A program made the translations under genes and the position numbers. Below the pieces are notes generated by a model. It did no database searches. It worked only from the letters and a program-made list of their open reading frames with translations, and was not told the DNA's origin. A DNA stretch of 64,000 nt from an archaeon GW2011_AR18 (lineage in GTDB: Archaea; Nanobdellota; Nanobdellia; SCGC-AAA011-G17; GW2011-AR18): positions 4,446-68,445 of the forward strand of contig JWKX01000006.1 of assembly GCA_000806155.1 (NCBI GenBank), written 5' to 3'. This document shows positions 6,231-33,252 of the stretch, in pieces; the first letter of the stretch is position 1; each line of letters opens with the position of its first letter.

Positions 6231-6232
6231 TA

Positions 6233-6721: not shown

Positions 6722-6778
6722 TGTTGTGCAACTTTATACATTTTTATTTTTTTTATATATTTTAAATTTGTTAATTAT

Positions 6779-8879: not shown

Positions 8880-8937
8880 GTTCTTGTTATTTGAGGAAAA
8901 TTTATAAAACTACTTGTAGATAACAATAATATTTATA

Positions 8938-9366: not shown

Positions 9367-9368
9367 TT

Positions 9369-9815: not shown

Positions 9816-9849
9816 TTAGAAATAGAAATGAATAAAGTTGTATAAAAGT

Positions 9850-11016: not shown

Positions 11017-11041
11017 TTTATTATTTCTCCTTAATATATTT

Positions 11042-16833: not shown

Positions 16834-17013
16834 TATTGCACCTTTTTTAACATTAGATACATTATCTGTACTATGAGTATGCTTGCTAGTAGATTTTCTG
16901 CTGTGAATCCGTATAATGCTAAGAATATAAATAATCCTAATACAAAAAATAAGAAGAATACTTTGCTTTTTTCCATATAGATATTTAAGAGATAAGATTA
17001 TTAAATCTAACTT

Positions 17014-17580
17014 TTACAATCTATTCTGCAATTCTAAACTTAAAGCTAGATCTTCTAGTTTATTCAAGTTCCATTTTATTGCATCTGATTTTTTCCTTAA
17101 TTCCCCGTTTCTTAGATCAAATCTCAAGAATTCTCCATATATCTCTTCTACTACTTGTTTTATCTTTATTACTTTATCAAAATGTTTTGCTATTGATTCA
17201 TGTACTGCTTTTCTTCCTAATTCTCCTGTTAAATCAGCTAATCCTGATAGATAATCTTCAACTACAACTCCTAATTCCTTCGCACTTGGTAGTTTATCAT
17301 TCTTTACTAGTTCATAGAATGTTACTGCTTCTACATATTCCTGGAATGCTACCGAGCTTATTCCTGTATCATAATTTTTTGTCCTGTCTAATAATTTTAT
17401 CTTGTTTTTTATATCTTTTAATAGTTTTTCAGCATTAGTTATATCATTTCTATGTATTGAATATATTATCTGTTTTGATAATGTTATTATCTCTCTTGAG
17501 TTTGTTATTGTCTCCTCTCTTCTTACCTCAAAGTCTTTCAGTTCTTTTCTCATTGATTCAAAATCTTTCTTATTTATCAT
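17014..17580 (-). CDS. Translin family protein
   Basis: DYLSGLADLTGELGR matches translin DYLLGVADLTGELMR. Confidence 0.7.
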   Translation of the reverse strand: MINKKDFESMRKELKDFEVRREETITNSREIITLSKQIIYSIHRNDITNAEKLLKDIKNKIKLLDRTKNYDTGISSVAFQEYVEAVTFYELVKNDKLPSAKELGVVVEDYLSGLADLTGELGRKAVHESIAKHFDKVIKIKQVVEEIYGEFLRFDLRNGELRKKSDAIKWNLNKLEDLALSLELQNRL

Positions 17581-17619
17581 AGAAATCTATATACTAGAGA
17601 ATATATTTAAATCTTTGTG

Positions 17620-17841
17620 TCAGGTTACTATTATCCTATAATCCTCTCCAGGTATTCTTTCAGAATCTCTTGCAGCATCTGATAATGGTTTTAATATTTC
17701 AGCCCATTTAAGGTATCCCTGTGTAAACTTTATTGAGTCTTCTTCTGTATATCCTAGTCTTTCTATACACATTTCATAAGTTTGTTTCACATTAAATCTT
17801 AAATTTTCACTAACAGAAGCTAATAATTCATCAATAGTCAT
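17620..17841 (-). CDS. Small hypothetical protein (paralog A)
   Basis: MTIDELLASVSENL. Paralogous to the next ORF. Confidence 0.35.
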   Translation of the reverse strand: MTIDELLASVSENLRFNVKQTYEMCIERLGYTEEDSIKFTQGYLKWAEILKPLSDAARDSERIPGEDYRIIVT

Positions 17842-17883
17842 ATAAGAATTTTATTTTTATAATATAAATATCTTTTGGATAAT

Positions 17884-18102
17884 TTAATCATATATTTGAT
17901 TAATTGTAATGGCATAATCTGCAGCTGTTAGTCTTGTGCAATTTCTTGCTTCCATACTATCATTATATATTCTTGCAATAAAATCTACATGTCTTAAAGT
18001 CATTTCTTGATCAAATGAGTTTTTTCTTGCAAATTCTAAAGCCTCTCTAACTGCTGTAACTAAATTATTGTCATCAGAACTTAATAATTCATCAATATTC
18101 AT
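17884..18102 (-). CDS. Small hypothetical protein (paralog B)
   Basis: MNIDELLSSDDNNL. Confidence 0.35.
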   Translation of the reverse strand: MNIDELLSSDDNNLVTAVREALEFARKNSFDQEMTLRHVDFIARIYNDSMEARNCTRLTAADYAITINQIYD

Positions 18103-18152
18103 GTATTAAAATTTATTTTTAGAGTATATATAGTTTTCTTATAACTTATTCT

Positions 18153-18845
18153 TTAACGTTTAATTCCAGTTATCTCTTTTACTAATCCTAGATAATCTTT
18201 CTTCTGTATCCTGCTTATTATTCCATTTACTTTATCTAATACCCCATTTAGTAAGTGTGTTGTCAGATCATTGATGTTAGTATGTATCTCCATTTTTTCT
18301 ACTTCCTTGTGTATGTTTCCTTCATATTCTTTATTCTTGTCAGGATTGAATATCTCATCATAATATATTATTCTTGTTAACTTTGTATCTAATGCTTTTA
18401 TTGTCTCTTTATCCTCTTCTAGTTCTTTTATTAAGTTCTTTATATCTTCATTTTCTTTCTTCTCATTTACCCATTTGAAATTCTCTAATAAATAATCATG
18501 GTATCTTTGTTCTACATGTGCTATTAAGTTTTTTAATTCTAGTGAATGTTGTGTTATTACTTTTATCTTTCCTGTTATTGATTTTATTATCTGTTTTTGC
18601 ATCTCTTTTTTATCCATTAGATTAGAATATTTGTTTATGTCCTGCATTAATCCTTTTAAATATGAACTTATTGCCTCAGCCTCGCTTCTTATTTTATCTA
18701 ATGCTAAACTCTCAATATCTAAATCTATAGAATCTAATCTTTCATTTATCTCTTTATCAACACTAGGTAACAGTTCTTTTTCTTCTTCTTTTGGTAATTC
18801 TACTTTTACCTCTTTTTTTCCAAATAAACTATTCCAAAATCCCAT
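18153..18845 (-). CDS. Hypothetical coiled-coil protein
   Basis: ORF of 230 aa, K/E-rich. Confidence 0.4.
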   Translation of the reverse strand: MGFWNSLFGKKEVKVELPKEEEKELLPSVDKEINERLDSIDLDIESLALDKIRSEAEAISSYLKGLMQDINKYSNLMDKKEMQKQIIKSITGKIKVITQHSLELKNLIAHVEQRYHDYLLENFKWVNEKKENEDIKNLIKELEEDKETIKALDTKLTRIIYYDEIFNPDKNKEYEGNIHKEVEKMEIHTNINDLTTHLLNGVLDKVNGIISRIQKKDYLGLVKEITGIKR

Positions 18846-18945
18846 ATTTTATTAATTTAGTAAGTGTTTTTATAGGTTTCTATAGATTCTAATCTGCAAA
18901 CATTTATATAATTAAAATTTTATAATATTTATTGAGGTGAAATAA

Positions 18946-19836
18946 TTGAATATTGGTTTTATTGGTCTTGGTCGTATGGGTTATAATATGGTTATTAATC
19001 TTTTAGATCATAATCATAAAGTTGTTGTATATAACAGAAGTCCTGATCCTACTTTAAAAATTCAAAAATTTGGTGCTGTACCATCTTATAATATCTATGA
19101 ACTAATTAGTAAATTGCCTAAAAAGAAAGTTATCTGGATTATGGTTACTTCTTCTGCTGTTGATAAGATTATTCATGATTTGATTCCTTTCTTGAATAAA
19201 GGTGATATTATCATTGATGGTGGTAATTCTTATTTTAAAGATTCTATTAATAGATTTAATAAATTAAAGAAGTTAGGTGTTCATTTTGTTGATGTTGGTG
19301 TTTCTGGTGGTATTGAAGGTGCAAGAAATGGTGCTTGCTTGATGGTTGGCGGAGAAAAGAAAATATATGAATCACTTAAGCCTATTTTCAGATCTTTATC
19401 AGCTAAAGATGGATTTTCTTATGTAGGTAATACTGGTTCTGGTCATTTTGTTAAGATGATTCATAATGGTATTGAATATGGTATGATGGCTTCTATTGCT
19501 GAAGGTTTTGAAACTCTTTATAAAAATCAGAAATATTTTAATTTGAATCTTAAGGATATCTCTAAAGTTTATTCTAATGGTAGTATTATTGAATCTAGAT
19601 TAATGTCATGGTTAAATAATGCTTTATCAGAAGACTCAGCTCTTAAATCTATCAAAGGTATTGTCCCTGAAGGTGAGACAGAATTTGAAATGAGTAATCT
19701 AACTAAACTTTCTTATATGCCTATTTTAGAGAGAGCTATTATTGAAAGAGTTAATTCTAGGAAAAAAGAAAATTTCAGAAGTAAGATTATTGCTGTTTTA
19801 AGAAATAAGTTTGGTGGTCATAAATTAAAAGACTAA
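18946..19836 (+). CDS. gnd: 6-phosphogluconate dehydrogenase (decarboxylating), short form
   Basis: MNIGFIGLGRMGYNMVINLL Rossmann N-terminus. About 296 aa, YqeC/Gnd-like. Confidence 0.8.
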   Translation: MNIGFIGLGRMGYNMVINLLDHNHKVVVYNRSPDPTLKIQKFGAVPSYNIYELISKLPKKKVIWIMVTSSAVDKIIHDLIPFLNKGDIIIDGGNSYFKDSINRFNKLKKLGVHFVDVGVSGGIEGARNGACLMVGGEKKIYESLKPIFRSLSAKDGFSYVGNTGSGHFVKMIHNGIEYGMMASIAEGFETLYKNQKYFNLNLKDISKVYSNGSIIESRLMSWLNNALSEDSALKSIKGIVPEGETEFEMSNLTKLSYMPILERAIIERVNSRKKENFRSKIIAVLRNKFGGHKLKD

Positions 19837-21245
19837 ACTCCATTCTTGAACCATTCTCTTCCATCTTTTCTTATTAGTTCATCTGCTTCTTTTGGTCCAT
19901 TACTATTTTGTTTATATTCATATAATTTTTTCATATTTAACAATTTATCAACTACTTTCCATGATTCTTTTGTCTCTTCCCAGCTTGTAAAATTGCTTAG
20001 ATCTCCTTCTGATGCTTCACTAAATAATTTTTCATATGCCTCTATTGTATTATATCCGAATATATTTTTATAACTGAATTTTAGATCTACTTTTTGTGTA
20101 TCTAGTTTTAGTCCTGGTTTTTTTGTATTGAATCTGATATTTATATCACTCTCAGGTTGTATGTGTATTACTATCTCATTTGATTTTAATGGCAATCTCT
20201 TATCTGTAAAGCATCTTATATCTTTAAATTTTATATAGACATAAGCCTCTTTTCTCTCTAATTTTTTTCCTGTTCTTAGATAAAACGGAACTCCTTTCCA
20301 TCTTTTATTATTGATATTTAATTTTAAAGCTGCAAATGTTGGTGTTATTGAATTTTTATCTACATTTAGTTCTTTCTTATAATTTTCATACTGTCCTAAT
20401 ACTATATTTTTTTCTAATTCTTTCTTATCTATTGCTTTTATTATCTCTAGTTTCTCTCTTCTTATTGATTCTGCTTCTAATTTTCCAGGACAATCTATTG
20501 TCATTAATGTTAATATCTGCATTAGATGATTCTGTATCATATCTCTTATTATTCCTGAATTATCATAATAATTTCCACGATTCTCTACTCCTAAACTTTC
20601 AGAGACTATTATCTGTGCATAATCTATATATTTGTTGTTCCATATTGGATCAAATATTGTATTTGTAAATCTGAATAATAGTATATTAGAGACAGTCTCT
20701 TTTCCTAGGTAATGGTCTATTCTGTATATCTGTTCCTCTCTGAATGATCTTGTTATTAACTCATTTAATTTAGTAGCAGTTTTTATATCATATCCGAATG
20801 GTTTTTCTATTATTAATCTTTTATATCCGTCTTTTTCTTCTCCTAGTCTGTTTTTCTTTATTGAATTTATTATATGTTCATAATTTTCTGGCATTGTTGC
20901 CATGTAATATAATCTATTATGTTTTATTTTATGTTTATTTTCTAATTCTTCTAGATATTTTTTTAATCCACTCATTCCTTTTTCATCATTGAAATCTGTC
21001 TTGTAATAGTATATTTTATTTTTTAGTTCATTCCATGTTTTCTGGTCAAAGTCTTTTAAGTTTGTATTAATGAATTCATATAGATATTTTATAAATTTTT
21101 CATTATTCCATTCTTTTCTTCCTATACATACTATTAAATAATTTTGTAAATGTTTTTCTTTTAATAAGTTATATAATGCAGGTATTAATCTTCTCTTTGT
21201 CAGATCTCCTGTCGCCCCGAATATTACTAAGTTAAAATTTTCCAT
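19833..21245 (-). CDS. zwf: Glucose-6-phosphate 1-dehydrogenase
   Basis: FGATGDLTKRRLIPALYNL and RIDHYLGKE motifs. Confidence 0.9.
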   Translation of the reverse strand: MENFNLVIFGATGDLTKRRLIPALYNLLKEKHLQNYLIVCIGRKEWNNEKFIKYLYEFINTNLKDFDQKTWNELKNKIYYYKTDFNDEKGMSGLKKYLEELENKHKIKHNRLYYMATMPENYEHIINSIKKNRLGEEKDGYKRLIIEKPFGYDIKTATKLNELITRSFREEQIYRIDHYLGKETVSNILLFRFTNTIFDPIWNNKYIDYAQIIVSESLGVENRGNYYDNSGIIRDMIQNHLMQILTLMTIDCPGKLEAESIRREKLEIIKAIDKKELEKNIVLGQYENYKKELNVDKNSITPTFAALKLNINNKRWKGVPFYLRTGKKLERKEAYVYIKFKDIRCFTDKRLPLKSNEIVIHIQPESDINIRFNTKKPGLKLDTQKVDLKFSYKNIFGYNTIEAYEKLFSEASEGDLSNFTSWEETKESWKVVDKLLNMKKLYEYKQNSNGPKEADELIRKDGREWFKNGV

Positions 21246-22549
21246 TATAAGTATTTTTTTGTCTCTGTTTTATATTCTTCCACATTTGGCTGGTCAAATG
21301 GATTTACATTCATCAAATGCCCTAAGAACATAATCTCCATCATTTTCATCTGCAATAATTGTCCTATGCAATACTCTATTTTTTTTGGTAATATTATCTC
21401 CATATATGGTAATTGTCTATTTAAATAAGTCTTCTCTACCCCTTGTATTATTGCATTCATTATAAATGCCATTTCTTTATTATATAATTTAGGTAAAACA
21501 TCTACTTCATTCTCTTTTATTTCAACATGGTTCTTGAATTCATTTACTATTACAAATGTTGTTAATTTATCATTCAATCCACCTAGATATAATTGCACCA
21601 TTGAGTGTAAGTCTGTTGTCCCTATTGATGTTATTGGTGTTATCCCATTACTTATGCTTTTTCCTTGCAGATCTTTTTCTTTTCCTAGGCTTTCAGCTGT
21701 TAATTGTCTGTACCATCTTCCTATTGACTCTAGGTCATTAGCAAATAAGAATGTGTTATGTATTGTTTTTTGTTTTTTATAATTATTATATATTATTAAT
21801 GCTGATAATGCTGCGGGATTTGTGAATATATCTTTACTCAAGCAAGTTTCTATCATTTTTCTTGCTCCATCTAATAATTGGTCTATGTCTATTCCTATTA
21901 CTGCTAATGGAAACAATCCAACAGAACTGAATACAGAATATCTTCCTCCAACTTTTGCTGGTATCTCTAATAATTCATATCCCTCTCTCTCTCCTAGTTC
22001 CCATAATTTAGAATTCTTATCTGTTGTTATTACTATTGAATCTTTATAATTTTTTAAATTTTCTTTTAAATAATCTATTAATACACTAAAATTTGCTATT
22101 GTCTCTGTTGTTGTTCCTGATTTTGATATGCAGTTAATTACTACTTTTTTCTTATTTTTGACTTCTCTCTCTATTATTGTTTTTATATCAGTTAAATAAT
22201 CTGGATCTACGGTCTCTAAATATAATATTTTTACTTTATCTTCAGATGTTTGATTATATAACTTTCCTAGTAATGCTTCCTGTACTGATAATGTACCTAG
22301 ATTAGAACCTCCTATTCCTATGACGATTATATAGCTTGCTTTTGTATACTTTCTTGCTAGTTTTCTTATCTTTATTATATTTTTTCTGTCAAATGGTAGA
22401 TTTATTGAACTGAAACTTGAATCATAATCATCATCTTTAGATGCTCCTATCATATAATCTATGGTTTTACTGACTACTTCAGAGTCTCTTGCCATGTCAA
22501 ACTTTGTTACACCACAAGTGTTTTCATATCTAAAAATTAGTTCATTCAT
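21245..22549 (-). CDS. pgi: Glucose-6-phosphate isomerase
   Basis: IIVIGIGGSNLG PGI signature. Overlaps zwf (TAATG) and tal (ATGA). Confidence 0.8.
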   Translation of the reverse strand: MNELIFRYENTCGVTKFDMARDSEVVSKTIDYMIGASKDDDYDSSFSSINLPFDRKNIIKIRKLARKYTKASYIIVIGIGGSNLGTLSVQEALLGKLYNQTSEDKVKILYLETVDPDYLTDIKTIIEREVKNKKKVVINCISKSGTTTETIANFSVLIDYLKENLKNYKDSIVITTDKNSKLWELGEREGYELLEIPAKVGGRYSVFSSVGLFPLAVIGIDIDQLLDGARKMIETCLSKDIFTNPAALSALIIYNNYKKQKTIHNTFLFANDLESIGRWYRQLTAESLGKEKDLQGKSISNGITPITSIGTTDLHSMVQLYLGGLNDKLTTFVIVNEFKNHVEIKENEVDVLPKLYNKEMAFIMNAIIQGVEKTYLNRQLPYMEIILPKKIEYCIGQLLQMKMMEIMFLGHLMNVNPFDQPNVEEYKTETKKYL

Positions 22550-23211
22550 TTTATTTTGAATTTTGTTTTTTTCCAGTCATCTAAGAATTTATTTATTCCA
22601 ACATCTGTTAGTTCATGTCTGAATAGTTTCTCAAATACTGAATATGGTATTGTGCATGCGTCTGCTCCTAGTAGTGCTGCCTCCATTACATGATGTGGTC
22701 CTCTTATACTTGCTACTAGTATTTGTGTTTTCATTCCATAGTTTGTATATATTTTTTTTATTTGTTCTATTAGTCTCATTCCATCTTCGTTCTGGTCATC
22801 TAATCTTCCTACGAATGGGCTTATGAAGTATGCTCCTGCTTTTGCTGCCATTAATGCCTGTGTTGGTGAGAAACATAATGTTACATTTACTCTTATTCCT
22901 CTTTTTGTTAATTCTTTACAGGCTATTAATCCATCCTGTGTTACTGGAACTTTTACTACCACATGTTTTGATAAGCTAGCTAGTTTAATTCCCTCTTCTA
23001 TCATTGTTTTTGCATCTAAGCTTGCTACTTCAAAGTTTACTACATCCATTGGTTTTGTAAAAATACTTAGGATATCATGTGTTAATTTTTCAAATGATGG
23101 ATATCCCTCTATTGAAGCTAAAGTTGGGTTTGTTGTAACTCCATCAATTAAATTTGTCGCATATGCTTTTTTTAAATCATTTAAATTTGCTGAATCTAAG
23201 AATATCTTCAT
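22546..23211 (-). CDS. tal: Transaldolase (Tal/FSA short type)
   Basis: MKIFLDSANLNDLKKAYATNLIDGVTTNPTL. Confidence 0.85.
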   Translation of the reverse strand: MKIFLDSANLNDLKKAYATNLIDGVTTNPTLASIEGYPSFEKLTHDILSIFTKPMDVVNFEVASLDAKTMIEEGIKLASLSKHVVVKVPVTQDGLIACKELTKRGIRVNVTLCFSPTQALMAAKAGAYFISPFVGRLDDQNEDGMRLIEQIKKIYTNYGMKTQILVASIRGPHHVMEAALLGADACTIPYSVFEKLFRHELTDVGINKFLDDWKKTKFKIK

Positions 23212-23493
23212 TATTTCACCTCTATTTATATTATTACTTAGAACCTTATTGTATTTAAAGTTTATTGATTATTTTGGCATTCCACAAATCTTGCATTTCT
23301 TATGGAAAAACTAGGAGCAAGTAGTTACAAAAAATAAGGTTATGTAAAATGATAAAAGATATTTATAAGGGTTAATGATGCAAAATAGTACACAACATCG
23401 TAGATATACAGTTATGCTCAATAATTTTTAGTGGCGAAATTAATACGAGAGAGACAATTCTATTCAATACGATTAAATATTAATTACAGAAAG

Positions 23494-23501
23494 TTTAAAT
23501 A
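23494..23501 (+). promoter_or_regulatory. Putative TATA box (TTTAAATA) for the DGQHR gene, leaderless spacing
   Basis: About 28 nt upstream of the ATG at 23525. Preceded by purine-rich AGAAAG. Confidence 0.25.
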
Positions 23502-23524
23502 TTGTAGTAAGTATTTATTATTTA

Positions 23525-25570
23525 ATGGATCAAGTAGAACAAAATACATCAAAAAAAAGGAGAGCAATAGATTTTGAAAAATCAATTATGAATTTTTTGA
23601 CTAAATTAGAATTTGAAGATGTTGATGGTGCCAAAGATTCATTTAAAATTAATGGAATTCAAGTAGATGTATGTGGTGGACATGAAAATACACTCTTAAT
23701 TATTGAATGCAAACATAAGGACAAAAAGAAGGTCCAAGGAGAAGATAGTATAAGAAATTATATTAAAACCTTACGAGGTGATATTCATATACTCGAGAAA
23801 GGATTTAAATCTCATCCAATTTATTCAAAGTATGAAAAATTCAAATACATAATATGTACAAAAAATTATAATATAAGAAAAGTAGATTTTGATTTTGCTA
23901 ATCAAGAGCCTCATGTTCATTTATGCAATGAAGATTTTATAAATTATTATGAAGAATTGTATCAATGTATTGGAAAATATGCAAAATATGACATGCTTGG
24001 CGAATTATGGATTAAACCAGAACAAGATGTACCAATTTTGGTGCCTGCTTTTTTGGTTACTTTTGGGCAATCTAAAATGTATAATTTTGTCATTGATCCA
24101 AAAGTACTATTAGAAGTTGCATATGTTGCAAGAAGAACCTCTAGGAGAGAAAGAAATTATCAACGAATGATAAATAAAAAGAGGATTGAATCCATTGCAC
24201 AATATATTAATGATGATAATATACTTCCTAACAATATAATTATTTCTATTAATAAAGTTAAATTTCATCCAAAAAATTCAAAATATAATCCAATTGAATT
24301 TCCCGCACTTAATATGAGCTATGGAATTTTAGAATTTCCAAATGATTATAAGAGTTGTTGGATAATTGATGGTCAACATAGACTTTATGCATTTATGAAA
24401 ACTAATAAGGAAAAATATTTCAATATGCCTGTAACTGCGTTTGAAAATCTTTCAAATGAGGAACAATGTAAATTCTTTTTAGACATAAATAAGAATCAAA
24501 AACCAGTTCCTAGTGATTTAGTTTGGGATCTAAATGGTGATATGTTAGATACCCAAACAGATGGAATAATTTCTAGAACTGTAAAAAAACTTAATAATAG
24601 TGGACCTTTATATCATATGATATACTATCCTTCATTAGGTGTGAAGACTGCTCTTCTTAAAATTTCAGGAATATGTATCAGCATTAAAAGATCAAAATTG
24701 GCAGAAACTAACACTATAAGCAAAACTGCTAATCCCTTGTATCATAAGGACTCTGATAAAACTGAAACTGCCTTATCAAATGCGTTAATTGACTATTTTG
24801 ATTTAATAAAATTGGAATTCGAAGAAAATTGGAAATTAGAAGATAAAGGGTTTATTTTAACCGATGGGGGCATGAGTGTATTTATTTATCTTTTTGAAAA
24901 AATTTTACAAAGAATTACTCTAAAAGGAAAATCACCAACAAAAGAGGAGTATAAAAAATACATATTACCTTTAAAAAAATTATTTGAGTCTGATTATTCT
25001 AGTAAAGAAGAATTAAAGAAATTGAGAGGAAGAACTTCTGGTGAAGGTCCTAAACATGATTTATTGATCGAATTTATTATTTTTATTAAAAATGAAATCA
25101 ATGATCAATTATTTGGTGGAGATATTGAAATTATTGATGAAAATTCATTTTCAGAATTAGAGAGCAATTTAAAGGAGTTAATTAATACAGTTTTATTGAA
25201 AAATATTGGTGATAATTGGTTTGAAGATTTAAAAAGCATGGATAAAGAAATGTATTCCATTGCATTAAAACATCATGAGAATCATGGTTTAAAAGACAAA
25301 AATAAAGTATATAAACAATTAACTCTTGGTAATTGTAGATCTATTATTGAGCATAAAACATATGTTGATTATTTTAAACCGTTATTTACAAAAAACGAGT
25401 ATTTTTATGATTGGAAGGAATTTGAAGGTTCATTATCACAAATTGTGCGTATGAGAAATACTCAAAAAAGTCATGATGTAGGTGTAACCAAAAAATTACA
25501 TGATGATAACATTCTAAAATTAAATTTAGATAAATTGTCTAAATGCTTAAAAGAGATAGATATAAAATAA
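23525..25570 (+). CDS. Multidomain defence-like protein: PD-(D/E)xK-like nuclease N-term, DGQHR (DndB-like) domain, C-terminal HEPN-like domain
   Basis: D48...E61-C-K63 (QVDVCGGHENTLLIIECKH). WIIDGQHRLYAF at aa 282-286 with YQRMINKKRIESIAQYI and FENLSNEEQCKFFLDINKNQKPV. C-terminal SQIVRMRNTQKSH (R-x5-H). A-ending codons on the + strand run against local bias. Confidence 0.75.
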   Translation: MDQVEQNTSKKRRAIDFEKSIMNFLTKLEFEDVDGAKDSFKINGIQVDVCGGHENTLLIIECKHKDKKKVQGEDSIRNYIKTLRGDIHILEKGFKSHPIYSKYEKFKYIICTKNYNIRKVDFDFANQEPHVHLCNEDFINYYEELYQCIGKYAKYDMLGELWIKPEQDVPILVPAFLVTFGQSKMYNFVIDPKVLLEVAYVARRTSRRERNYQRMINKKRIESIAQYINDDNILPNNIIISINKVKFHPKNSKYNPIEFPALNMSYGILEFPNDYKSCWIIDGQHRLYAFMKTNKEKYFNMPVTAFENLSNEEQCKFFLDINKNQKPVPSDLVWDLNGDMLDTQTDGIISRTVKKLNNSGPLYHMIYYPSLGVKTALLKISGICISIKRSKLAETNTISKTANPLYHKDSDKTETALSNALIDYFDLIKLEFEENWKLEDKGFILTDGGMSVFIYLFEKILQRITLKGKSPTKEEYKKYILPLKKLFESDYSSKEELKKLRGRTSGEGPKHDLLIEFIIFIKNEINDQLFGGDIEIIDENSFSELESNLKELINTVLLKNIGDNWFEDLKSMDKEMYSIALKHHENHGLKDKNKVYKQLTLGNCRSIIEHKTYVDYFKPLFTKNEYFYDWKEFEGSLSQIVRMRNTQKSHDVGVTKKLHDDNILKLNLDKLSKCLKEIDIK

Positions 25571-25711
25571 TTTTTAATAACTACTAATATATTGAATAGA
25601 ATTGTCTCCTCTGAAGTTATATTAGATTGCTCACGATGCTCGCTTGATGAACGGCGCCACTAAAAATTACTCCTCCGCTCGAGCCGAGAACATAACAGTC
25701 GTTAAATCCAA

Positions 25712-25748
25712 TCGAGAATGAGGCATAATTTAGTTAAAGGGCAATTTC
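25712..25748. repeat. Left arm of imperfect inverted repeat flanking the serpin unit
   Basis: TCGAGAATGAG...AAGGGCAATTTC. Reverse complement of 27887-27948. Confidence 0.4.
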
Positions 25749-25844
25749 TAAAAAATTAAAGGAGTCGCCTTACTAATGATAACAAACTTCAACTCAATTT
25801 GAAGTCAAGAATATATTTAAATAGTAAAACTTATATCTTATTAT

Positions 25845-26042
25845 ATGGACAAAAAACATATTTCAATTCCATCAATTTTAATCATTATAGTTTCATTAAG
25901 TATAATTCTATCTGGATGTAATACGGAATATGAAACTCCATCACCAGATGAGCCCATCATAATTCCAGATGAACCAATCACACAAGCAAAAACAGAAGGA
26001 ATGTCCAATATTGTAGATGCAAATAACGAATTTGCTGTCAAA
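25845..26042 (+). pseudogene. Serpin gene 5' fragment (lipoprotein signal plus helix A), truncated by IS insertion
   Basis: Lipobox LSGC. ...ANNEFAVK then reads into the IS end. Continues in frame at 26740 (LNYYNKIKDSEENVFFSPYSISSALAM). Confidence 0.55.
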
Positions 26043-26739
26043 TGCTCGCTGACACCACCGGTGCTACACCGGATGGCTTGCTCGCCTGTTGGCTCGGTCA
26101 GCTCGCGTAGTTAAGTAAACTCATTTGTTTTTTGTCTTCTCTTTTCCCGTATTTTTGGTTTCTTATGTAACTGATTATTCTTTTCATGTCTTTCGGACTT
26201 TCTAAGTAATAGCTTGTATTCCACAAACCGCTATTCCAAAAGTATTGTTTTTTTATTTTTGGGAATTTTTGTAATAATTTTTTTGCTGTATATCCTTTTA
26301 GCATTTTTGCAACTTGAGGTCTACTGTACAATCCGATGTCAACAAGCATGTGAACATGGTTGTTGTCGAATCCTAGTTCGCTTATTTCTATATCGTATTT
26401 TCCGCATGCTTGTTGGAATAATTTTTCACAATAATTTCTTATTTGTTTGTCGTCAAATATTTTGTGGCAGTATTTTATTTTGAACATTCCGTGCATCCAA
26501 GCTTCTCCAACACAGGAACTATGTCTAGGTATCTCATTTTTCATTTTTTGTTTCCTGATGCAAAGGTTTATTAGAAAGAATATAGTTTACACTATTGCGT
26601 TGTCTTTCTAGTAGCATAGCATCAATGCTAACGCTACTATTTTATTTTTTTAAGAACAAAAACCTAACTATTTTTTTATAACTTTTACTACCACCAGTCA
26701 GCTCACTGCGGTTCGCTTATAGACTGGTGGAATTAACGA
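26043..26739 (-). mobile_element. IS200-family insertion sequence (IS200/IS605 group, tnpA only)
   Basis: 697 bp. Y1/HuH TnpA. Subterminal hairpin CCACCAGTC...GACTGGTGG at 26701-26740. GC-rich palindromic end at 26043-26110. Precisely interrupts the serpin ORF. Confidence 0.7.
26098..26544 (-). CDS. tnpA: IS200/IS605 family transposase TnpA (Y1 HuH)
   Basis: HVHMLV HuH motif. C-terminal QYFWNSGLWNTSYYLES...ISYIRNQ. Confidence 0.8.
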   Translation of the reverse strand: MKNEIPRHSSCVGEAWMHGMFKIKYCHKIFDDKQIRNYCEKLFQQACGKYDIEISELGFDNNHVHMLVDIGLYSRPQVAKMLKGYTAKKLLQKFPKIKKQYFWNSGLWNTSYYLESPKDMKRIISYIRNQKYGKREDKKQMSLLNYAS

Positions 26740-27831
26740 TTAAATTATTATAATAAAATCAAAGATAGTGAAGAAAATGTTTTCTTTTCCCCATATAGTA
26801 TCTCTTCTGCTTTAGCAATGACTTATGAAGGTGCAAAAGGTCAAACCGCAGAAGAAATTCAGTCATTATTCTATCTTCCAGAGGATGATGAATTAAGAAG
26901 AACATCCTTTGAAGAAACTAATGATGAAATCAATAAAAAAGACAAAGAATATTCACTCCATGTAGCTAATGCTTTATGGGCTCAGAAAGATTTTGAATTT
27001 AGAAAAGATTATTTTGATTTAGTAGAAAAATATTATGGCGGCTCAGCCACAAATCTTGATTTTTACAAAGACCCAGAATCATCAAGATTAGTTATAAATG
27101 ATTGGGTTGAAGAAAAAACAAATGATAAAATCAAAGATTTAATACCTCATGGTGCCATCAAAAAGATAACAAGATTAGTTCTTACAAATGCCATCTACTT
27201 TAAGGGAACATGGATTACACAATTCGATGAAGAGCAAACAAAAGATGAAGATTTTAAAGTCGGTTTTGGTAAAACTGTTAAAGTTCCTTTGATGAGCATA
27301 AAGGAAAATACATTTAATTATGCTGAAACAGATGATTTGCAAATTTTAGAACTAGATTATGAGGGAGATGAATTATCTATGCTTTTCTTGCTCCCAGATA
27401 ATATGAATTCTCTAGAGAAATCATTAACAACTGAAAAATTAGCTGAATGGAAGGATATGCTGAGAGAAAGAAGAGTCGACATTTACATACCTAAATTCAA
27501 ATTTGAAACAAAATATTTCATGGCGCAAGACCTTGTAAATATGGGAATGCCTACTGCATTTTCTGACAATGCTGACTTTACAGGCATGGAAGATAAACCC
27601 GATGAAGATCTGAAAATAGATCAAGTGATACATCAAGCATTTGTTGAAGTAAATGAAGAAGGCACTGAAGCCGCTGCTGCAACTGCTGTTATAATGGTAG
27701 GGATAACATCTGTAGGACACGCGCCAAAAATACCTATATTTAGAGCAGACCATCCATTCATATTTATAATTCAGCAAAAAGAAACTGGAAATATACTATT
27801 CTTAGGAAAAGTTAATGATCCAAATAAATAA
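26740..27831 (+). CDS. Serpin (inhibitory), body of gene lacking its native start because of IS insertion
   Basis: FFSPYSISSALAMTYEGAKG. RCL hinge EEGTEAAAATAV. C-terminal FRADHPFIFII. First in-frame ATG at 26818. Confidence 0.8.
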   Translation, partial: LNYYNKIKDSEENVFFSPYSISSALAMTYEGAKGQTAEEIQSLFYLPEDDELRRTSFEETNDEINKKDKEYSLHVANALWAQKDFEFRKDYFDLVEKYYGGSATNLDFYKDPESSRLVINDWVEEKTNDKIKDLIPHGAIKKITRLVLTNAIYFKGTWITQFDEEQTKDEDFKVGFGKTVKVPLMSIKENTFNYAETDDLQILELDYEGDELSMLFLLPDNMNSLEKSLTTEKLAEWKDMLRERRVDIYIPKFKFETKYFMAQDLVNMGMPTAFSDNADFTGMEDKPDEDLKIDQVIHQAFVEVNEEGTEAAAATAVIMVGITSVGHAPKIPIFRADHPFIFIIQQKETGNILFLGKVNDPNK

Positions 27832-27886
27832 TAAAACGGCTACCCCCTACTGTTTTATTTTGAAGAGCCTTTGGCTTAGATAAACA

Positions 27887-27948
27887 GAAATTGCCCTTAA
27901 TGATTTTAATGGATTGCCCTTCGGACTTTAAGACGGACTCATTCTCGA
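27887..27948. repeat. Right arm of imperfect inverted repeat flanking the serpin unit
   Basis: GAAATTGCCCTT...CTCATTCTCGA, same order and inverted relative to the left arm. Confidence 0.4.
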
Positions 27949-28107
27949 ATTTTCGGTCGAAATTTTACTCCACTTCGTAGGTAAAAGGATTTAACAGGAA
28001 TTACACACAATTTTACTGCTGTAAAACTTTTTGTTTTATTTTTTAATAAATTTTTCTTTAGAAATTAAATCCATTAGATGGAGTGTATAACATTTATTAT
28101 CTGTAAT

Positions 28108-28119
28108 TCCAGAGGTCAC
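28108..28119. repeat. 12-bp inverted repeat TCCAGAGGTCAC (partner at 29364-29375) flanking the amidohydrolase gene
   Basis: Perfect 12-mer inverted match in GC-rich intergenic spacers on both sides of 28127-29326. Confidence 0.3.
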
Positions 28120-28126
28120 AATCGGG

Positions 28127-29326
28127 TTATTCTGAAAGTAGTCTTTCTGCATTTTTATAGGCAAACTTCTCTTGCACGATAGGATCGAGTCTGTCAATAA
28201 ATACACGGGTATAATTATTCAAAGCCAATGCAACCTCAGGATCTTTATCCCAAATAGTTGGACCGCCTCTATCTGTACCCCATAGCACTTGATCTGGATG
28301 TCTTTCAATAAACCCTTTCCACATGGGAAGATCGATCTCAAGTAAAGCTTCATAATCTGCAAAATTTTCTAAAAATTTCTCTTTGCTTCTGCCAAGTTCT
28401 AATAACCAATCTCCCCCATAAAGTTCATTCACTGTATAATAAATATTTGGATTATTGTAAAGTAATTCTTCTATAAGAACTAAAACTTTTTCATCATGAG
28501 ATATACCTGCTTGAGTCTCACTGATATTAAACAAATTGCCCCCATGGAAAACAAAAGTAATATTAGGATTTGCTCTGGCAACATTTTCATAAGCTTCTTT
28601 TTGCCCCTGACCAAGGTGAAAATATACAATTAATTTATGCATCTTAATCACTGGATAAATTTCCATCAATATTGTAGAATTTGGTGAAAGTGGTGGAGAA
28701 TTAGGATTTCCATATAAACCTATTTCACCATAACCTTTGAATAATCCAAGTTCCAAATTTAACATCATTTCCAGTTCTTCTGCAGATACTGTAGCTTCAA
28801 CATTGCCTGGTGGATTTATAAATGGAACAAAAAGATCAGAATATTTTTCTAAAGTCATCTTAACTACGTCCACAGATTCCTGCACTATGGGCTCAGCCAC
28901 AGGAAAGAAACCCCACACTTGTTTAGTCCCTTCAACATTGATCATACAAACCCACTCTTCCATGCTGCGTTTTATTCCTAAATTATCCCCTGTATAATAA
29001 TCATCAGGAAATCCTGGCACACCCCCTGGTAAGTTCTGTAAATGAATGTGCGTATCTATCATTGAGCCCTTATAATAACCATCCGGCAAACTACTTGGAT
29101 CACGAGGTTCAGCACAATCAACTATTTCAAATGCTTTAGCAAATACTCTCTTCCAGTGGAGTTCTTCTACAGATAATTCTTCATCTTTGTCATATACTTC
29201 TACATCATCTGTTAAAGAATCTTCAGATCTCTCAGCAAGACCAGGCTGCTGTTGAGCACAACCACTAATAAAGATAACTAAAATGATAGATAATAGTAAT
29301 GTCAAATAACCTCTTTTTGACTTCAT
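28127..29326 (-). CDS. Amidohydrolase-family metal-dependent hydrolase, lipoprotein
   Basis: Signal plus lipobox ISGC. IDTHIHL metal-binding motif of the TIM-barrel amidohydrolase superfamily. Confidence 0.6.
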   Translation of the reverse strand: MKSKRGYLTLLLSIILVIFISGCAQQQPGLAERSEDSLTDDVEVYDKDEELSVEELHWKRVFAKAFEIVDCAEPRDPSSLPDGYYKGSMIDTHIHLQNLPGGVPGFPDDYYTGDNLGIKRSMEEWVCMINVEGTKQVWGFFPVAEPIVQESVDVVKMTLEKYSDLFVPFINPPGNVEATVSAEELEMMLNLELGLFKGYGEIGLYGNPNSPPLSPNSTILMEIYPVIKMHKLIVYFHLGQGQKEAYENVARANPNITFVFHGGNLFNISETQAGISHDEKVLVLIEELLYNNPNIYYTVNELYGGDWLLELGRSKEKFLENFADYEALLEIDLPMWKGFIERHPDQVLWGTDRGGPTIWDKDPEVALALNNYTRVFIDRLDPIVQEKFAYKNAERLLSE

Positions 29327-29363
29327 GGTATAAAATACATTATTGTTCTATAAAAATTCTTCG

Positions 29364-29375
29364 GTGACCTCTGGA
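29364..29375. repeat. Right copy of 12-bp inverted repeat (GTGACCTCTGGA)
   Basis: Reverse complement of 28108-28119. Lies between the amidohydrolase start and the tkt stop. Confidence 0.3.
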
Positions 29376-29397
29376 GCTCTCCTTCGGCTTCGCCTCA

Positions 29398-31248
29398 TTA
29401 GTTAGTTATCATTGAATAGTTTAATTTTAATATTCTTTTTACTGCTCTTATTATTGACTTATCATTTATTCCTTCTATTTCCATTAATTTTTCTTTTGTT
29501 CCTGAATGTGGCATCTCTCTTACACATAAATGTTCAAATTCTATATTATTTCCTGCACTTGCAGCCATTATCATCTCTCCAATTCCACCTTCTTTATAAT
29601 GATCTTCTACTATTACTACTTTGTTTCCTGATTTCTTCACTAATTCTATAAATCTTTTTGTATTGAATGGTTTTATACAATAACAATCTACTATTACAGT
29701 TTCTACATCATCCTGGCTTAATCTCTCAGCTGCTTTTATTGCTTCATGTACTGTTATTCCTGCTCCGACTATTACTGCTTTATCATTTTTTGATTGTTTT
29801 AATATTTTAAACTCTCCTAACTCAAATACCTCTCTATTATTATAGAGTACAGGTGTTTTTGGTCTTGTTGTTCTTATATATTTGATTCCTGATATATTTG
29901 ATGCTAGTAATGTTAGTTTTTCTGTTGATACTGCATCGCTTGGATATAATACTATACTTCTTGGTAATGCTCTGAATATTGCTATATCTTCTAATCCCAT
30001 TTGTGATGGTCCATCCTCTCCTATTGATGATCCTGCATGACTTCCTACTATTGTTAAATTTGCATTTGATATTGATGCCATTCTTATCTGATCATGTGCT
30101 CTTGATAAAAAACATGCAAAACTTGACGCAAACACATTATATCCTTTAACGCTCATTCCTAATGCCATGCTTATCATGTTCTGTTCTGCTATGTATGCTT
30201 CTACAAACCTGTTTGGATATGCTTTCTTTAGATCTTCAGCATGTGTTGAGTTTCCTACCTCTGCATCTGTTGCAACTATTAATGAATTATTTTTAGCTAG
30301 TTTTACTAGTGCTTTCCCATATGCCTCTCTTGTTGCTATATTATCATTTAGTTTATATTCTGGATTTGTATAATTATCATTCATTTTTATTTTATATCTG
30401 ATTTTTTTTGGTGTTTTTATTTTAAAATTTGGCATTTCTGGATTTTTTAATTCTTTTAGTGCTTTTTCTAATTCATGTTCTGTTAGTGCTTTCCCATGCC
30501 ATCCCTCTTTATCTTCTAGGAATGATACTCCCTTTCCTTTTAGTGTTTTAGCAATAATGACTGTTGGTCTTCTGTCTTTTCTTGCATTTCCTAATGATTT
30601 TTGTATTTGTTCAATATTATGTCCATCTATTACTACTGCATTCCATCCAAATCCTTCGAATCTTTTTTTATAAGCTTGTGTATCATGTCCTAGTAATGTC
30701 TCTCCACGTTGTCCTAGCCTGTTTACATCTATTATTGCACATAAGTTGTTTAGTTTGTAATGTGAAGCAATTTCTAGAGCCTCGTATACTGATCCTTCTG
30801 CACATTCTGAATCTCCTAGTAATACATATGTTCTGCATTTTCTTTTCTGCATTTTTGATGCTATTGCTATTCCTACTCCAACTCCTAATCCCTGTCCTAG
30901 TGATCCTGTTGCTACCTTGATCCATTTTAGTTGTGTAGGTAACGGATGTCCCTCTAATGGTGATCCATAACTTCTTAATGTGTTTAAATTATAGTCTATG
31001 CATCCTGATCTTGCTAATACTGAATATAATATTGGTGCTGCATGGCCTTTTGATAATATTAACTCATCATTATCTGGGTTTAATGCATTTTTTGTGTCAT
31101 ATGACATTTCGCTAAAGAATAATACACTTAATATTTCAGCAGATGATAAGCATGTTGTTGGATGTCCAGATGTAGCAGTTGTAGTCATTTTAAGAACATC
31201 TCTTCTTAGAATTGTTGCTATATCCTTTAATGCTTGTGTATTCACCAT
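29398..31248 (-). CDS. tkt: Transketolase
   Basis: 616 aa. N-terminal TATSGHPTTCLSSAEI. ThDP-binding architecture. Confidence 0.9.
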   Translation of the reverse strand: MVNTQALKDIATILRRDVLKMTTTATSGHPTTCLSSAEILSVLFFSEMSYDTKNALNPDNDELILSKGHAAPILYSVLARSGCIDYNLNTLRSYGSPLEGHPLPTQLKWIKVATGSLGQGLGVGVGIAIASKMQKRKCRTYVLLGDSECAEGSVYEALEIASHYKLNNLCAIIDVNRLGQRGETLLGHDTQAYKKRFEGFGWNAVVIDGHNIEQIQKSLGNARKDRRPTVIIAKTLKGKGVSFLEDKEGWHGKALTEHELEKALKELKNPEMPNFKIKTPKKIRYKIKMNDNYTNPEYKLNDNIATREAYGKALVKLAKNNSLIVATDAEVGNSTHAEDLKKAYPNRFVEAYIAEQNMISMALGMSVKGYNVFASSFACFLSRAHDQIRMASISNANLTIVGSHAGSSIGEDGPSQMGLEDIAIFRALPRSIVLYPSDAVSTEKLTLLASNISGIKYIRTTRPKTPVLYNNREVFELGEFKILKQSKNDKAVIVGAGITVHEAIKAAERLSQDDVETVIVDCYCIKPFNTKRFIELVKKSGNKVVIVEDHYKEGGIGEMIMAASAGNNIEFEHLCVREMPHSGTKEKLMEIEGINDKSIIRAVKRILKLNYSMITN

Positions 31249-31595
31249 CTTTTACTATTATTAGATAGGTTTTTATATTTAAAGTTATATGTTAAATTAT
31301 GTTTGGTGATTTACAACCTTCTTACTCTGAATGTTTAAGCAATAGTCTTACTGATCTTAGTTACTTGTTAACTATTGTGGTAATTTTAATTATAATCTAT
31401 TTTGTTTTATCAATAATCTCTTTTATTTATTATAAAAATAAGAAGAATTAATCATTATTTCAATGTTTAATTTGTATTTAAGTTTTTAGATTCTAGAAAA
31501 TTTTTAATCTCTTAGGATATTTGATTTTTTCACAAACACAAAGTTTATATACTTAGTATATATGTTATGTATATGTAAGATTGAGGTAAACAAAA

Positions 31596-31835
31596 ATGGT
31601 ACAAGCAATGATAGAAATTCCCGAACAAGCAAATCAAATATTAAACATAGTGAAAGCTAGATATAATTTAAAGACAAAAAGTGAAGCAATAGCTAAAATA
31701 GTTATAGATTATGGTGGAAACATTCTAGAGCCTGAATTAAGACCTGAATATTTAGAAAAACTTCAAAAAATAGAAAAAGAAAAGGGAATTAGTTTCAAGA
31801 GTATATCAGAATTAAGAAAAATCATAGAAGGCTAA
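31596..31835 (+). CDS. DUF2683-like small protein, putative antitoxin
   Basis: MVQAMIEIPEQANQILNIVKARYNLKTKSEAIAKIV. Immediately upstream of a RelE-like ORF. Confidence 0.5.
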   Translation: MVQAMIEIPEQANQILNIVKARYNLKTKSEAIAKIVIDYGGNILEPELRPEYLEKLQKIEKEKGISFKSISELRKIIEG

Positions 31836-31836
31836 A

Positions 31837-32109
31837 ATGTATGATTACGAAATAATGCCTGACTTACAAAGAATTCTTAACAGATTATTCAAAAAAGATA
31901 AAAACTATTATGAGCAGGTTATGAATAAGATTGAGGAAATAATTAATTCAGCAGAAGTAGAGCATTACAAAAACCTAAGGTATGATTTAAGTGATTATAA
32001 AAGAGTTCATATTGGACATTTTGTTCTCGTTTTTAAATTTGAAAAAGCAATCAACATGATTAAGTTTGTAGATTTTGATCATCATGATGTTATTTATAAG
32101 AAAAAATAG
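31837..32109 (+). CDS. RelE/ParE-family toxin
   Basis: YKRVHIGHFVLVFKFE...FDHHDVIYKKK. Confidence 0.65.
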   Translation: MYDYEIMPDLQRILNRLFKKDKNYYEQVMNKIEEIINSAEVEHYKNLRYDLSDYKRVHIGHFVLVFKFEKAINMIKFVDFDHHDVIYKKK

Positions 32110-32140
32110 AATTAACATATTTACAATTCTAATTTATGTA

Positions 32141-32764
32141 TCACTTAATGCAGATTTTTATTTTTCTTAGATTTTCTTTTATATCTTTAGAATCTTTCAG
32201 ATAACTTCCTATTGCAAATAAGTTTGCTCCTGCTTTTTTACATAACTTTAGTGTTTCTGGATTTATATGTCCGTCTACTTCTATATCTTTTTTATAATCC
32301 ATTCTTAACATTTTTATCTTTTCTAATGTTTCTTCTAAAAATTCTGCTCCGTATTGCCCTGGATGTACTGTTAATATCAATACTCTATCTAATTGTTTCA
32401 AATAGGGCATTATATGCATTATTGATGTTTCTGGGTTTAGTGCAAATCCTATTTTCTTATGTTTTGATTTTACAAATTTTATTAGTTTTTCAGGATTTTT
32501 CACTTTCTCATAATTTGCGATTATTATTTTATAGTCTTTATAGTGTTTTTTTGTCCATTCTTCTGGATTATTTACCATTAAATGTGCTTCATATGTATAT
32601 TTTTTATCTAATTTTAATTTATAATTATTTGATGTATTTTTTACAAATTTCCCATCCATTATATCTACTTGGTAGTGTTTGAAGTATTTTGAATATTTTT
32701 TTATTATTTCATCAAATTCTTTCTGATTTTTTGATATTATTGTGGGTATTATCTGTGTTTTCAT
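32141..32764 (-). CDS. rpe: Ribulose-phosphate 3-epimerase
   Basis: QVDIMDGKFVKN motif. About 207 aa. Confidence 0.85.
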   Translation of the reverse strand: MKTQIIPTIISKNQKEFDEIIKKYSKYFKHYQVDIMDGKFVKNTSNNYKLKLDKKYTYEAHLMVNNPEEWTKKHYKDYKIIIANYEKVKNPEKLIKFVKSKHKKIGFALNPETSIMHIMPYLKQLDRVLILTVHPGQYGAEFLEETLEKIKMLRMDYKKDIEVDGHINPETLKLCKKAGANLFAIGSYLKDSKDIKENLRKIKICIK

Positions 32765-32811
32765 TTTTCTCGTGTTTTATTTTTATAACAACTGTCTTTT
32801 TTATAATACAC

Positions 32812-33252
32812 TCATTTCTCCAGTCTCTTTATCTGGTTTATTCTTCTTTTGTACTTATTTTTTGTCTTTAGTTTAGTTTCTATGAATGTTTTTATCATTT
32901 TCTTTGCTGTTTCTAGTTTTGTTGTTCCCTGTAAGCATATTATATTTGCATCATCATCACTTCTAGAAAGTTTCGCATCTTTAACATTCTCACATAATGC
33001 TGCTCTTATTCCTTTTACTTTATTTGCAGCTATTGATATTCCCTGTCCTGATCCGCATATTAATATTCCAAAACTTTTTCCTTCACTTACAGCTAATCCT
33101 ACTCTTGTTGCATATATTGGGTAATCGTCATTTTTATCATATATTGTATTCCCTAAGTCTATTACATCATATTTTTTTTCTAAATGTTCTAATAATTGAT
33201 TCTTCAACTTAAATCCTCTATGATCTGCTCCGATATATACTCTTTTTTTCAT
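32812..33252 (-). CDS. rpiB: Ribose-5-phosphate isomerase B
   Basis: MKKRVYIGADHRGFKLKNQLLEHL...DLG RpiB/LacAB signature. Confidence 0.85.
   Translation of the reverse strand: MKKRVYIGADHRGFKLKNQLLEHLEKKYDVIDLGNTIYDKNDDYPIYATRVGLAVSEGKSFGILICGSGQGISIAANKVKGIRAALCENVKDAKLSRSDDDANIICLQGTTKLETAKKMIKTFIETKLKTKNKYKRRINQIKRLEK

Follow-up and report, generated by a model that had tools for sequence, protein, structure and literature searches.

Between the transketolase gene (tkt) and the transaldolase gene (tal) of the DPANN archaeon GW2011_AR18 (Woesearchaeota), from Rifle aquifer groundwater, the 64-kb stretch of contig JWKX01000006.1 that we analysed (the window) carries 6134 bp of DNA (23264-29397) that has no counterpart in the closest relatives, the flanking genes of which are ~87-89% identical at the nucleotide level. 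We consider it highly probable that this segment is a lineage-specific accessory island in a neutral, hypervariable gap, and that its structure is a mosaic, not self-mobile, in which three single-gene modules are independent of one another. As reconstructed from the DNA, the modules would consist of a DGQHR protein with PD-(D/E)xK and candidate HEPN domains, a lipoprotein serpin and a lipoprotein Amidohydro_2 enzyme, each with its own bracketing inverted repeat and its own upstream AT-rich region, presumably its promoter. Other organisms would have supplied them, most probably DPANN that co-occur with the host and not a distant donor, and recently enough for the strand-fixed wobble bias of the host to be missing from them.

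The tkt-tal gap in the window and in relatives

Both core flanks of the island lie on the minus strand, tkt (29398-31248, assigned by Pfam) on the right and tal (22546-23211; Pfam TAL_FSA, 6.5e-57) on the left as the first gene of tal-pgi-zwf (19833-23211). The tal ATG and the tkt stop codon are separated by 6186 bp, and the Pfam assignments and coordinates agree with the first-pass annotation, which had placed the two groups on one strand about 6 kb apart. The same annotation proposed comparing related genomes, and in four relatives tkt and tal are neighbours at this site and the DGQHR, serpin and amidohydrolase genes are missing. The distance between them is 466 bp, with an insert of 0.42 kb, in L019, which among the other species of the genome collection is the nearest (tkt 90% identical in amino acids and ~87% in nucleotides); 2.4 kb in the metagenome contig L122 (tkt 90%, tal 95%); 619 bp in L022 (tkt 65%); and a spacer of 102 bp in L020 (tkt 70%). 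The amino acid identity of tal to L019 and L122 is 94-95%.

The limits of the island are homology breakpoints against these two nearest sequences. DNA homology between the window and L019 ends at 29399, in the tkt stop codon, and restarts at 23263; against L122 it ends at 29398 and restarts at 23226, and the comparison of L122 with L019 breaks at the same two points, such that the homology limit lies 15-52 nt upstream of the tal ATG (L122 and L019, respectively). What fills the gap differs from genome to genome: a 117-aa open reading frame (ORF) on the opposite strand in L019, genes for a YidD-like, a Zn-ribbon and a 244-aa protein and for a free-standing LAGLIDADG endonuclease in L122, and an ORF of ~180 aa in L022, with four of five relatives having a small gene of their own in the gap. 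Adjacency of tkt and tal in the relatives, taken with these differing contents, indicates that the two are ancestral neighbours and that the gap between them is a hypervariable site, of which 23264-29397 appears to be the fill specific to this lineage. Every contig of the same population that spans the locus carries the island, in one orientation. A strain variant (L002) was set aside as uninformative, its differences consisting of scaffold Ns and indels.

The first-pass annotation also regarded tkt, tal and zwf as parts of one operon that the island had split. Their neighbourhood in relatives is as it supposed, but a single operon is improbable: the native upstream region of tal was kept (23212-23263, minus strand; DNA homology extends to 23263 with L019 and to 23226 with L122), and these 52 nt, conserved with L019, include the TATA-like TTTAAATA and a GAGGTGA motif. 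Tal thus appears to retain a promoter of its own, in which case the island breaks no operon, and tkt and tal, neighbours though they are, probably do not form one transcription unit. The space from the end of tkt to the promoter of tal would be selectively neutral.

Other observations bear on the turnover of intergenic gaps in this lineage. The LAGLIDADG_2 homing endonuclease gene of L122 (2880-3764) is located directly upstream of tal with a 4-nt overlap, and a homing nuclease cutting near the tkt-tal site could help to account for the turnover of the gap. Three small ORFs lie between tkt and rpe in the window (31299-32109), and L019 (8009-9868) holds different genes there; in L019, ~2.8 kb with three ORFs (16996-19760) separate the gene similar to that for 6-phosphogluconate dehydrogenase (6PGD) from the next core gene, compared to ~100 bp in the window. 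Small intergenic insertions seem to be common in the lineage.

Cargo genes, wobble bias and the interrupted serpin gene

The genes of the host show a strong bias at third codon positions that is fixed to the DNA strand: plus-strand genes end in T and minus-strand genes in A, and the plus-strand A/T skew at these positions (AT3 skew) of 60 host genes has a mean of -0.307 (sd 0.15) irrespective of gene orientation. The cargo genes differ, with AT3 skews of -0.04 (DGQHR), +0.08 (serpin) and +0.10 (amidohydrolase); compared to the pooled host AT3, the binomial p values are 1e-12 to 1e-14, and the difference holds at four-fold degenerate sites. The transposase gene of an insertion sequence (IS) within the island agrees with the host bias (-0.41). 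Of 125 sliding windows, the one with the largest strand-specific 4-mer distance covers the DGQHR gene (z = 3.0); the other two cargo genes deviate only mildly. The skew and k-mer profiles proposed by the first-pass annotation give a deviation in AT3 for all three cargo genes and a 4-mer peak over DGQHR only. The cargo has not ameliorated to the local strand bias, as that annotation held, and its view of the segment as a foreign island of ~6 kb is borne out by the absence from relatives together with the missing wobble bias. Its description of the plus-strand island genes as A-ending was incorrect, however; they are balanced between A and T, and the minus-strand amidohydrolase gene deviates as well. 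That all other plus-strand genes of the window are T-ending is accurate except for 35893-36777, 42992-43531 and 62618-63067.

The core genes of L019, L122 and the contig L108 share the bias, reaching ±0.3 to 0.55, and the alternative tkt-tal inserts of L122 and L019 have skews near zero; many potential donor contigs lack any strand bias. Near-zero skew in the inserts of relatives and in unbiased donor contigs implies that such values mark recent arrivals in this lineage. Comparison of the serpin and amidohydrolase genes with their nearest homologs yielded no substitution trend toward the host bias, a result that is uninformative without an outgroup. As for the bias itself, the plus strand is T-rich with constant sign across the whole 64 kb, and the G/C strand asymmetry does not match it (G3 exceeds C3 in both orientations); the wobble A/T bias looks replication-linked rather than transcription-linked. 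Outside the island, near-zero skew was also found for the genes at 35893-36777, 42992-43531, 51700-52065, 56027-56814 and 62618-63067, one of which has a Fic domain, and these are candidates for further recent acquisitions. Two large minus-strand ORFs (1113 and 575 aa; 44486-49706) made up of tandem repeats of ~860 nt (3-4 copies, 60-96% identity) have an intermediate wobble skew of +0.15 to +0.19.

The DGQHR gene (23525-25570, plus strand) encodes a stand-alone ParB/DndB-like protein of 681 aa that matches Pfam DndB and, at 148.6 bits (cut-off 58.85), the DGQHR family TIGR03187; the residues D282, G283, Q284, H285 and R286 are invariant in 36 family sequences. It resembles the DndB/DpdB/DGQHR proteins (COG1479/DUF262-like, ParB superfamily) in having this domain above the cut-off, in being fused to PD-(D/E)xK-like and Rx5H helical regions, and in having homologs in defence-island neighbourhoods. 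It differs from DndB and DpdB in standing alone, with no dnd or dpd genes beside it (its neighbours are tal and the serpin gene), and in equivalog scores far below the cut-offs (DpdB, 103 bits compared to 300; DndB, 35 to 328; DGQHR_dnd_1, 87 to 450); PADLOC matched it to DpdB at 1.3e-30. The N-terminal 170 residues give a weak match to Hjc-type PD-(D/E)xK nucleases (1.7e-4), as do 11 of the 36 family members. The C-terminal helical domain contains an R644-x5-H650 motif, both residues of which are at least 90% conserved, and weakly matches the HEPN_Swt1 profile (0.024; E values of 0.024-0.07 in 4 of the 36 members); no HEPN structure was among the top Foldseek matches of the full-length model. 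That AF2 model (pLDDT 85) matched PD-(D/E)xK domains (AF1548, Card1/Cdn1, Hjc and McrC) and a ParB N-domain with weak E values and high probability, and a sequence search of the PDB gave no match. Architectures of this class, with nuclease and HEPN fusions to DGQHR, were noted by Makarova et al. 2013 (PMC3632139). Full-length homologs, none of them more than 60% identical, are scattered over WOR-3, Parcubacteria, Woesearchaeota and Thermoproteota as solitary genes with methylase/EVE, AAA_15, ParE/Phd (toxin-antitoxin) and DUF4145 genes as neighbours, and phage and plasmid collections contained only relatives of ~25% identity. The protein is predicted to be a defence or abortive-infection nuclease, with its C-terminal domain a candidate HEPN domain.

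The serpin gene is split by the IS200-type element. Its 5' part (25845-26036, plus strand) encodes a lipoprotein signal (MDKKH...LSGC) followed by the first portion of the serpin fold, and its 3' part (26740-27831, plus strand) matches Pfam Serpin at 1.3e-107 from profile position 36; the called ORF (26818-27831, plus strand, 337 aa) is without the signal peptide. Joined in frame, the two parts give a full-length lipoprotein serpin of 427 aa with the hinge EEGTEAAAATA. Two uninterrupted alleles, P0121 (assembled from run SRR3989344) and P0361 (located on contig L137), read ...NNEFA|LNYYNK... across the junction, and the serpin minus 6 IS-derived bases is 100% identical to P0121. The element itself (26037-26739, minus strand) is 703 bp long and has tnpA as its only gene (26098-26544, minus strand), for a Y1 (HUH) transposase of 148 aa that matches Pfam Y1_Tnp (PF01797, 1.2e-23) and NCBIfam transpos_IS200 (NF033573; 84.2 bits, cut-off 55). 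Contig L137 aligns without gaps to 25701-26036 plus 26740-28002, its empty site joining 26036 to 26740, which establishes that the insertion is exactly 26037-26739 and duplicated no bases. Both ends of the element form hairpins (z of -2.4 and -4.0 relative to shuffles), terminal inverted repeats are lacking, and it is located 3' of TTTAA. In the contigs L104 and L004, this left end adjoins two other flanks, and TTTAA is the terminal sequence of each of the three; the element has at least three insertion sites in the population.

These properties are those of the IS200 group of the IS200/IS605 family: a lone Y1 HUH gene, subterminal hairpins, no terminal inverted repeats, no duplication, and insertion 3' of a fixed pentanucleotide (TTTAA), here in three contexts. 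Nothing about it is unusual for the group, of which it is an archaeal (DPANN) copy. The first-pass annotation recognized the IS200 element and the serpin in this segment but counted the element as a separate island gene, whereas it sits inside the serpin gene. The full serpin fold is not intact in the window, and the insertion inactivates the serpin in this population; the order of events would be that a resident element entered the gene after the module had arrived. In L104 (1-890) and L004 (1-100), where the IS is joined to other left flanks (e.g., a Polbeta nucleotidyltransferase gene), the sequence to its right runs on into the serpin 5' part; the joins are probably repeat-induced assembly joins, and they show the element to be multi-copy. 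A 62%-identical serpin on L136 (3872-5666; GCA_053531455.1) has a Y1_Tnp (IS200-type) gene immediately downstream and lies among PIN/RHH and ParE genes. DNA of the serpin module was not found in phage and plasmid collections.

The third cargo gene (28127-29326, minus strand) encodes an Amidohydro_2-family lipoprotein of 399 aa (Pfam, 1.2e-10) with a signal ending in ISGC. The lipoboxes LSGC and ISGC that the first-pass annotation reported are present and are the sole lipobox-type signals among the ORFs of the window. The best homologs of the amidohydrolase are 79-88% identical. The copy on L114, a Rifle contig (88% in amino acids, 91.8% in nucleotides), shares its contig with TrbC/TraC-like genes of the type IV secretion kind; those on L108 and L113 (83% in amino acids, 85.7% in nucleotides) adjoin polysaccharide genes in the case of L108 and integrase, methylase and reverse transcriptase genes in the case of L113. 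Other DPANN genomes have tandem amidohydrolase paralogues in ordinary contexts. The gene on L114 (1917-3125) is near a DNA methylase gene and TrbC/TraC/TraG-like genes (4741-11335), and with a G+C content at third codon positions of 0.25, compared to ~0.41 in its neighbours, it appears foreign there too. Two similar units (GGGACGTTAGTAAAATGCTGAACGCCC and GGGGACGTTAGCAAGTTGTTAAACGCC), which may be structured repeats, occur in GC-rich sequence on L108 and L113, ~60-150 nt past the 3' end of the amidohydrolase gene.

Bracketing inverted repeats and the formation of the island

Each of the three cargo genes is flanked by an inverted repeat of its own. Repeat A surrounds the DGQHR gene; its left arm (23422-23469), with the blocks TAATTTTTAGTGGCG and GAGACAATTCTATTCAATA, has perfect inverted matches of 15 and 19 nt to the right arm (25590-25669), in which the same two blocks are separated by 46 nt rather than the 14 nt of the left arm. 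Repeat B surrounds the serpin gene, the left arm (25701-25749; GTTAAATCC, TCGAGAATGAG and AAGGGCAATTTCT) having inverted matches of 9, 11 and 13 nt to 27886-27995; this right arm and 7 further nt (AGGAATT) form the right end of the serpin module (27886-28002). Repeat C is a perfect 12-nt match between TCCAGAGGTCAC (28108-28119), just downstream of the amidohydrolase stop codon, and GTGACCTCTGGA (29364-29375), upstream of the gene. The GC-rich palindromic spacers of the first-pass annotation did not survive analysis: the intergenic spacers are not palindromic and, with z of +0.4 to +2.4, form weaker folds than their shuffles, and only the two IS ends are real hairpins.

The repeats were scored by exact inverted block counts relative to shuffles, with a window-wide control over 67 genes. 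The shuffle p values for the three cargo genes were 0.004, 0.006 and 0.03. In the control, the cargo genes rank 1-3 of the 67 for their best flanking inverted repeat (A ranks 1 and C ranks 2), with information scores of 10.7, 8.2 and 7.8 compared to 5.7 or less for all other genes of the window; the probability of such a ranking by chance is ~1 in 48,000. Direct-orientation and non-neighbour flank pairs were not significant relative to shuffles, and lenient gapped alignment of the cargo-gene flanks returned only noise. We also considered that bracketing repeats might be typical of the gene families concerned, or of the lineage in general, and rejected this, as the homolog loci and the relatives are at background.

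The serpin module occurs in a second context. The serpin copy of L137 (90% identical in nucleotides) is homologous over exactly 25701-28002, from the outer tip of the left arm of B (GTTAAATCC) to 7 nt beyond the tip of the right arm (GGATTTAAC plus AGGAATT), its flanks are unrelated, and it keeps five collinear inverted-repeat blocks. Homology that ends at the repeat tips identifies the serpin unit as a discrete, repeat-delimited module found in two contexts. A, B and C all have the form of a passenger gene between inverted repeats with no transposase of its own inside, the tnpA within B belonging to the later, unrelated IS. We infer that the inverted repeats may be ends used by a trans-acting recombinase or transposase and that the modules may have arrived one by one. 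That the repeats are the ends of single-gene cassettes mobilised in trans, which landed successively, has in our estimation about an even chance of being correct for the serpin and a smaller one for all three modules.

Several points weigh against the interpretation of the segment as an acquired mosaic island. Among ~48 contigs, none represented a variant of this species with the island missing or partly filled, and the serpin/amidohydrolase half deviates only mildly in 4-mer composition. Repeat C is just 12 nt long, with p = 0.03, and the homology of the amidohydrolase gene to other copies is confined to the coding sequence, short of this repeat; a second context is known for the serpin module only. 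Target-site duplications were not detected at the three repeat pairs, at the island ends or at the L137 copy, and neither an integrase, a tRNA nor an att-like direct repeat is present at the island or its borders, the sole mobility gene being the IS200 tnpA. A transposase with matching ends was not found, and the repeat motifs do not recur in the rest of the window, in the loci fetched (where the same population alone matched) or in IMG/VR. A looser pattern of the repeat motifs produced only chance matches, and a 12-nt motif (TCGGCTTCGCCT) common to the L137 flank and the window (29384-29395) is marginal, with ~0.1 expected by chance.

The lack of an integrase or att site is compatible with replacement of the whole block, as in a replacement flexible island: it would have been assembled in a related strain and have entered in one piece, the conserved tkt and tal serving as flanks for homologous recombination, and would not have grown by successive insertions at this site. 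In each of the three pairs compared (window/L019, window/L122 and L122/L019), the breakpoints coincide exactly with the ends of conserved genes, which fits such an event, as do the three mutually exclusive inserts of three related genomes. It leaves unexplained, however, the inverted repeats around each gene and the lone repeat-delimited serpin module, and a donor with the same block was not found. We view this as a real but lesser possibility; it is compatible with a mosaic of single-gene modules and merely shifts the place of its assembly.

The repeats could also be functional parts of the genes, either by pairing of the 5' and 3' untranslated regions (UTRs) of the mRNA or as sites for inversion of whole genes. 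Their spacing is UTR-like, with 8-52 nt from stop codon to downstream arm and 40-145 nt from upstream arm to start codon; they are kept, and are even longer, in the serpin copy of L137; and inversion would likewise predict a strand bias that averages to zero over time. Pairing between UTRs is countered by TATA-like boxes between the upstream arm and the ATG, which would leave the arm probably untranscribed, and it does not predict that the L137 homology ends at the repeat tips; moreover, the window arms are decayed relative to L137, with no compensating changes. Frequent gene inversion as the cause of zero skew was rejected: all contigs show a single orientation, and the hotspot inserts of L122 and L019 are near zero in skew yet have no bracketing repeat. 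On balance, a functional role of either kind is unlikely.

Mobile insertion cassettes (MICs) are passenger genes between IS-type terminal inverted repeats that are mobilised in trans, as exemplified by MIC231 of Bacillus cereus. The modules of the island are similar in having one passenger gene between inverted repeats and no transposase inside, and in the serpin unit that is found in two contexts and ends at the repeat tips. They differ from MICs in that target-site duplications are missing and a cognate IS is not known for the island repeats, and the island arms are long, multi-block, unequal (49 compared to 110 nt) and different among the three modules. The island as a whole resembles the flexible islands or hotspots of bacteria and haloarchaea in having a content that varies between close genomes at a fixed position bounded by core genes, atypical cargo composition, accessory and defence-type genes, and an IS. 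Unlike those, it has no tRNA, integrase or att repeats, resides in a DPANN host, is signalled by missing wobble strand bias and not by GC content, and has repeats that bracket each gene. The island at a core-gene hotspot, the IS200 insertion and the solitary DGQHR nuclease are thus of known kinds; what they leave unexplained is that long inverted repeats, unrelated to one another, enclose each gene singly and without duplications, an arrangement that is MIC-like but fails two defining MIC features. It is conceivable, although we hold it rather doubtful, that the three modules represent an undescribed kind of archaeal mobile cassette, in which long multi-block inverted repeats would enclose one gene and its promoter, with neither a transposase nor a duplication. 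Such cassettes would be moved in trans, e.g., by a heterology-tolerant tyrosine recombinase or a single-strand "panhandle" route, and would collect at neutral intergenic gaps of DPANN genomes.

An integron-like cassette array, i.e., a cluster of attC sites without an integrase (CALIN), was rejected as very improbable. Archaea, Nanoarchaeota among them, are known to have CALINs (Ghaly et al. 2022, PMC9668308), and the island is like these in that its single-gene modules stand in tandem in a DPANN genome and are probably moved in trans; its modules are separated by GC-richer spacers, and that of the serpin starts with GTTAAAT (fitting GTTRRRY) and ends with ATTTAAC (fitting RYYYAAC). Against this, neither strand of the island has any R'' (RYYYAAC)/R' (GTTRRRY) pair 45-160 nt apart, the spacers fold poorly, attC hairpins (imperfect, ~55-140 nt) are absent, and Rfam returned nothing at E <= 1. 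The genes are in mixed orientation with promoter-like regions of their own, the palindrome would be cut at the apex and not the base, the repeats flank each gene rather than follow it, and no IntI is present among the island ORFs (the rest of the genome was not searched). Equally improbable, and rejected too, are an ancestral segment lost differentially from relatives and an assembly chimera, for which nothing specific speaks beyond the small number of relatives available: the wobble bias is unlike that of 60 host genes, the relatives carry other genes and not scars at the site, the cargo homologs lie in unrelated contexts, and independent assemblies of several samples, in JGI, ENA and NCBI data, agree on this arrangement.

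Core genes of the window and biological meaning

The window is AT-rich (GC ~29%) and contains an archaeal RNase P RNA gene (RF00373, 100 bits; 5373-5745, minus strand), which marks it as archaeal; tRNA genes were not found in the 64 kb. Around the island, Pfam identified the short 6PGD-like gene (18946-19836, plus strand), zwf (19833-21245, minus strand) and pgi (21245-22549, minus strand), and rpe and rpiB are located upstream of tkt; 18946-33252 thus holds a near-complete pentose-phosphate set for a DPANN archaeon (zwf, short 6PGD-like, pgi, tal, tkt, rpe and rpiB). The closest relatives of tkt are in metagenome-assembled genomes of Woesearchaeota, Pacearchaeota and Nanoarchaeota, and outside DPANN the nearest (~50% identity) are bacterial, from Acidobacteriota and Aminicenantes. 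Literature searches on AR18, DPANN serpins and DPANN hotspots found nothing.

The tkt-tal island provides a base-pair-resolved example of accessory gain by streamlined, host-dependent DPANN archaea, the functions gained here being those of two surface lipoproteins and a predicted defence nuclease. Their genes enter what would be a neutral gap between core metabolic genes, and the gap is refilled differently in each close relative. The strand-fixed wobble A/T bias offers a simple detector of recent arrivals in this lineage, which GC content would miss. If the inverted repeats are indeed mobility ends, the modules would represent a cassette-type vehicle for exchange among co-occurring DPANN that is neither an integron cassette nor a classical transposon.

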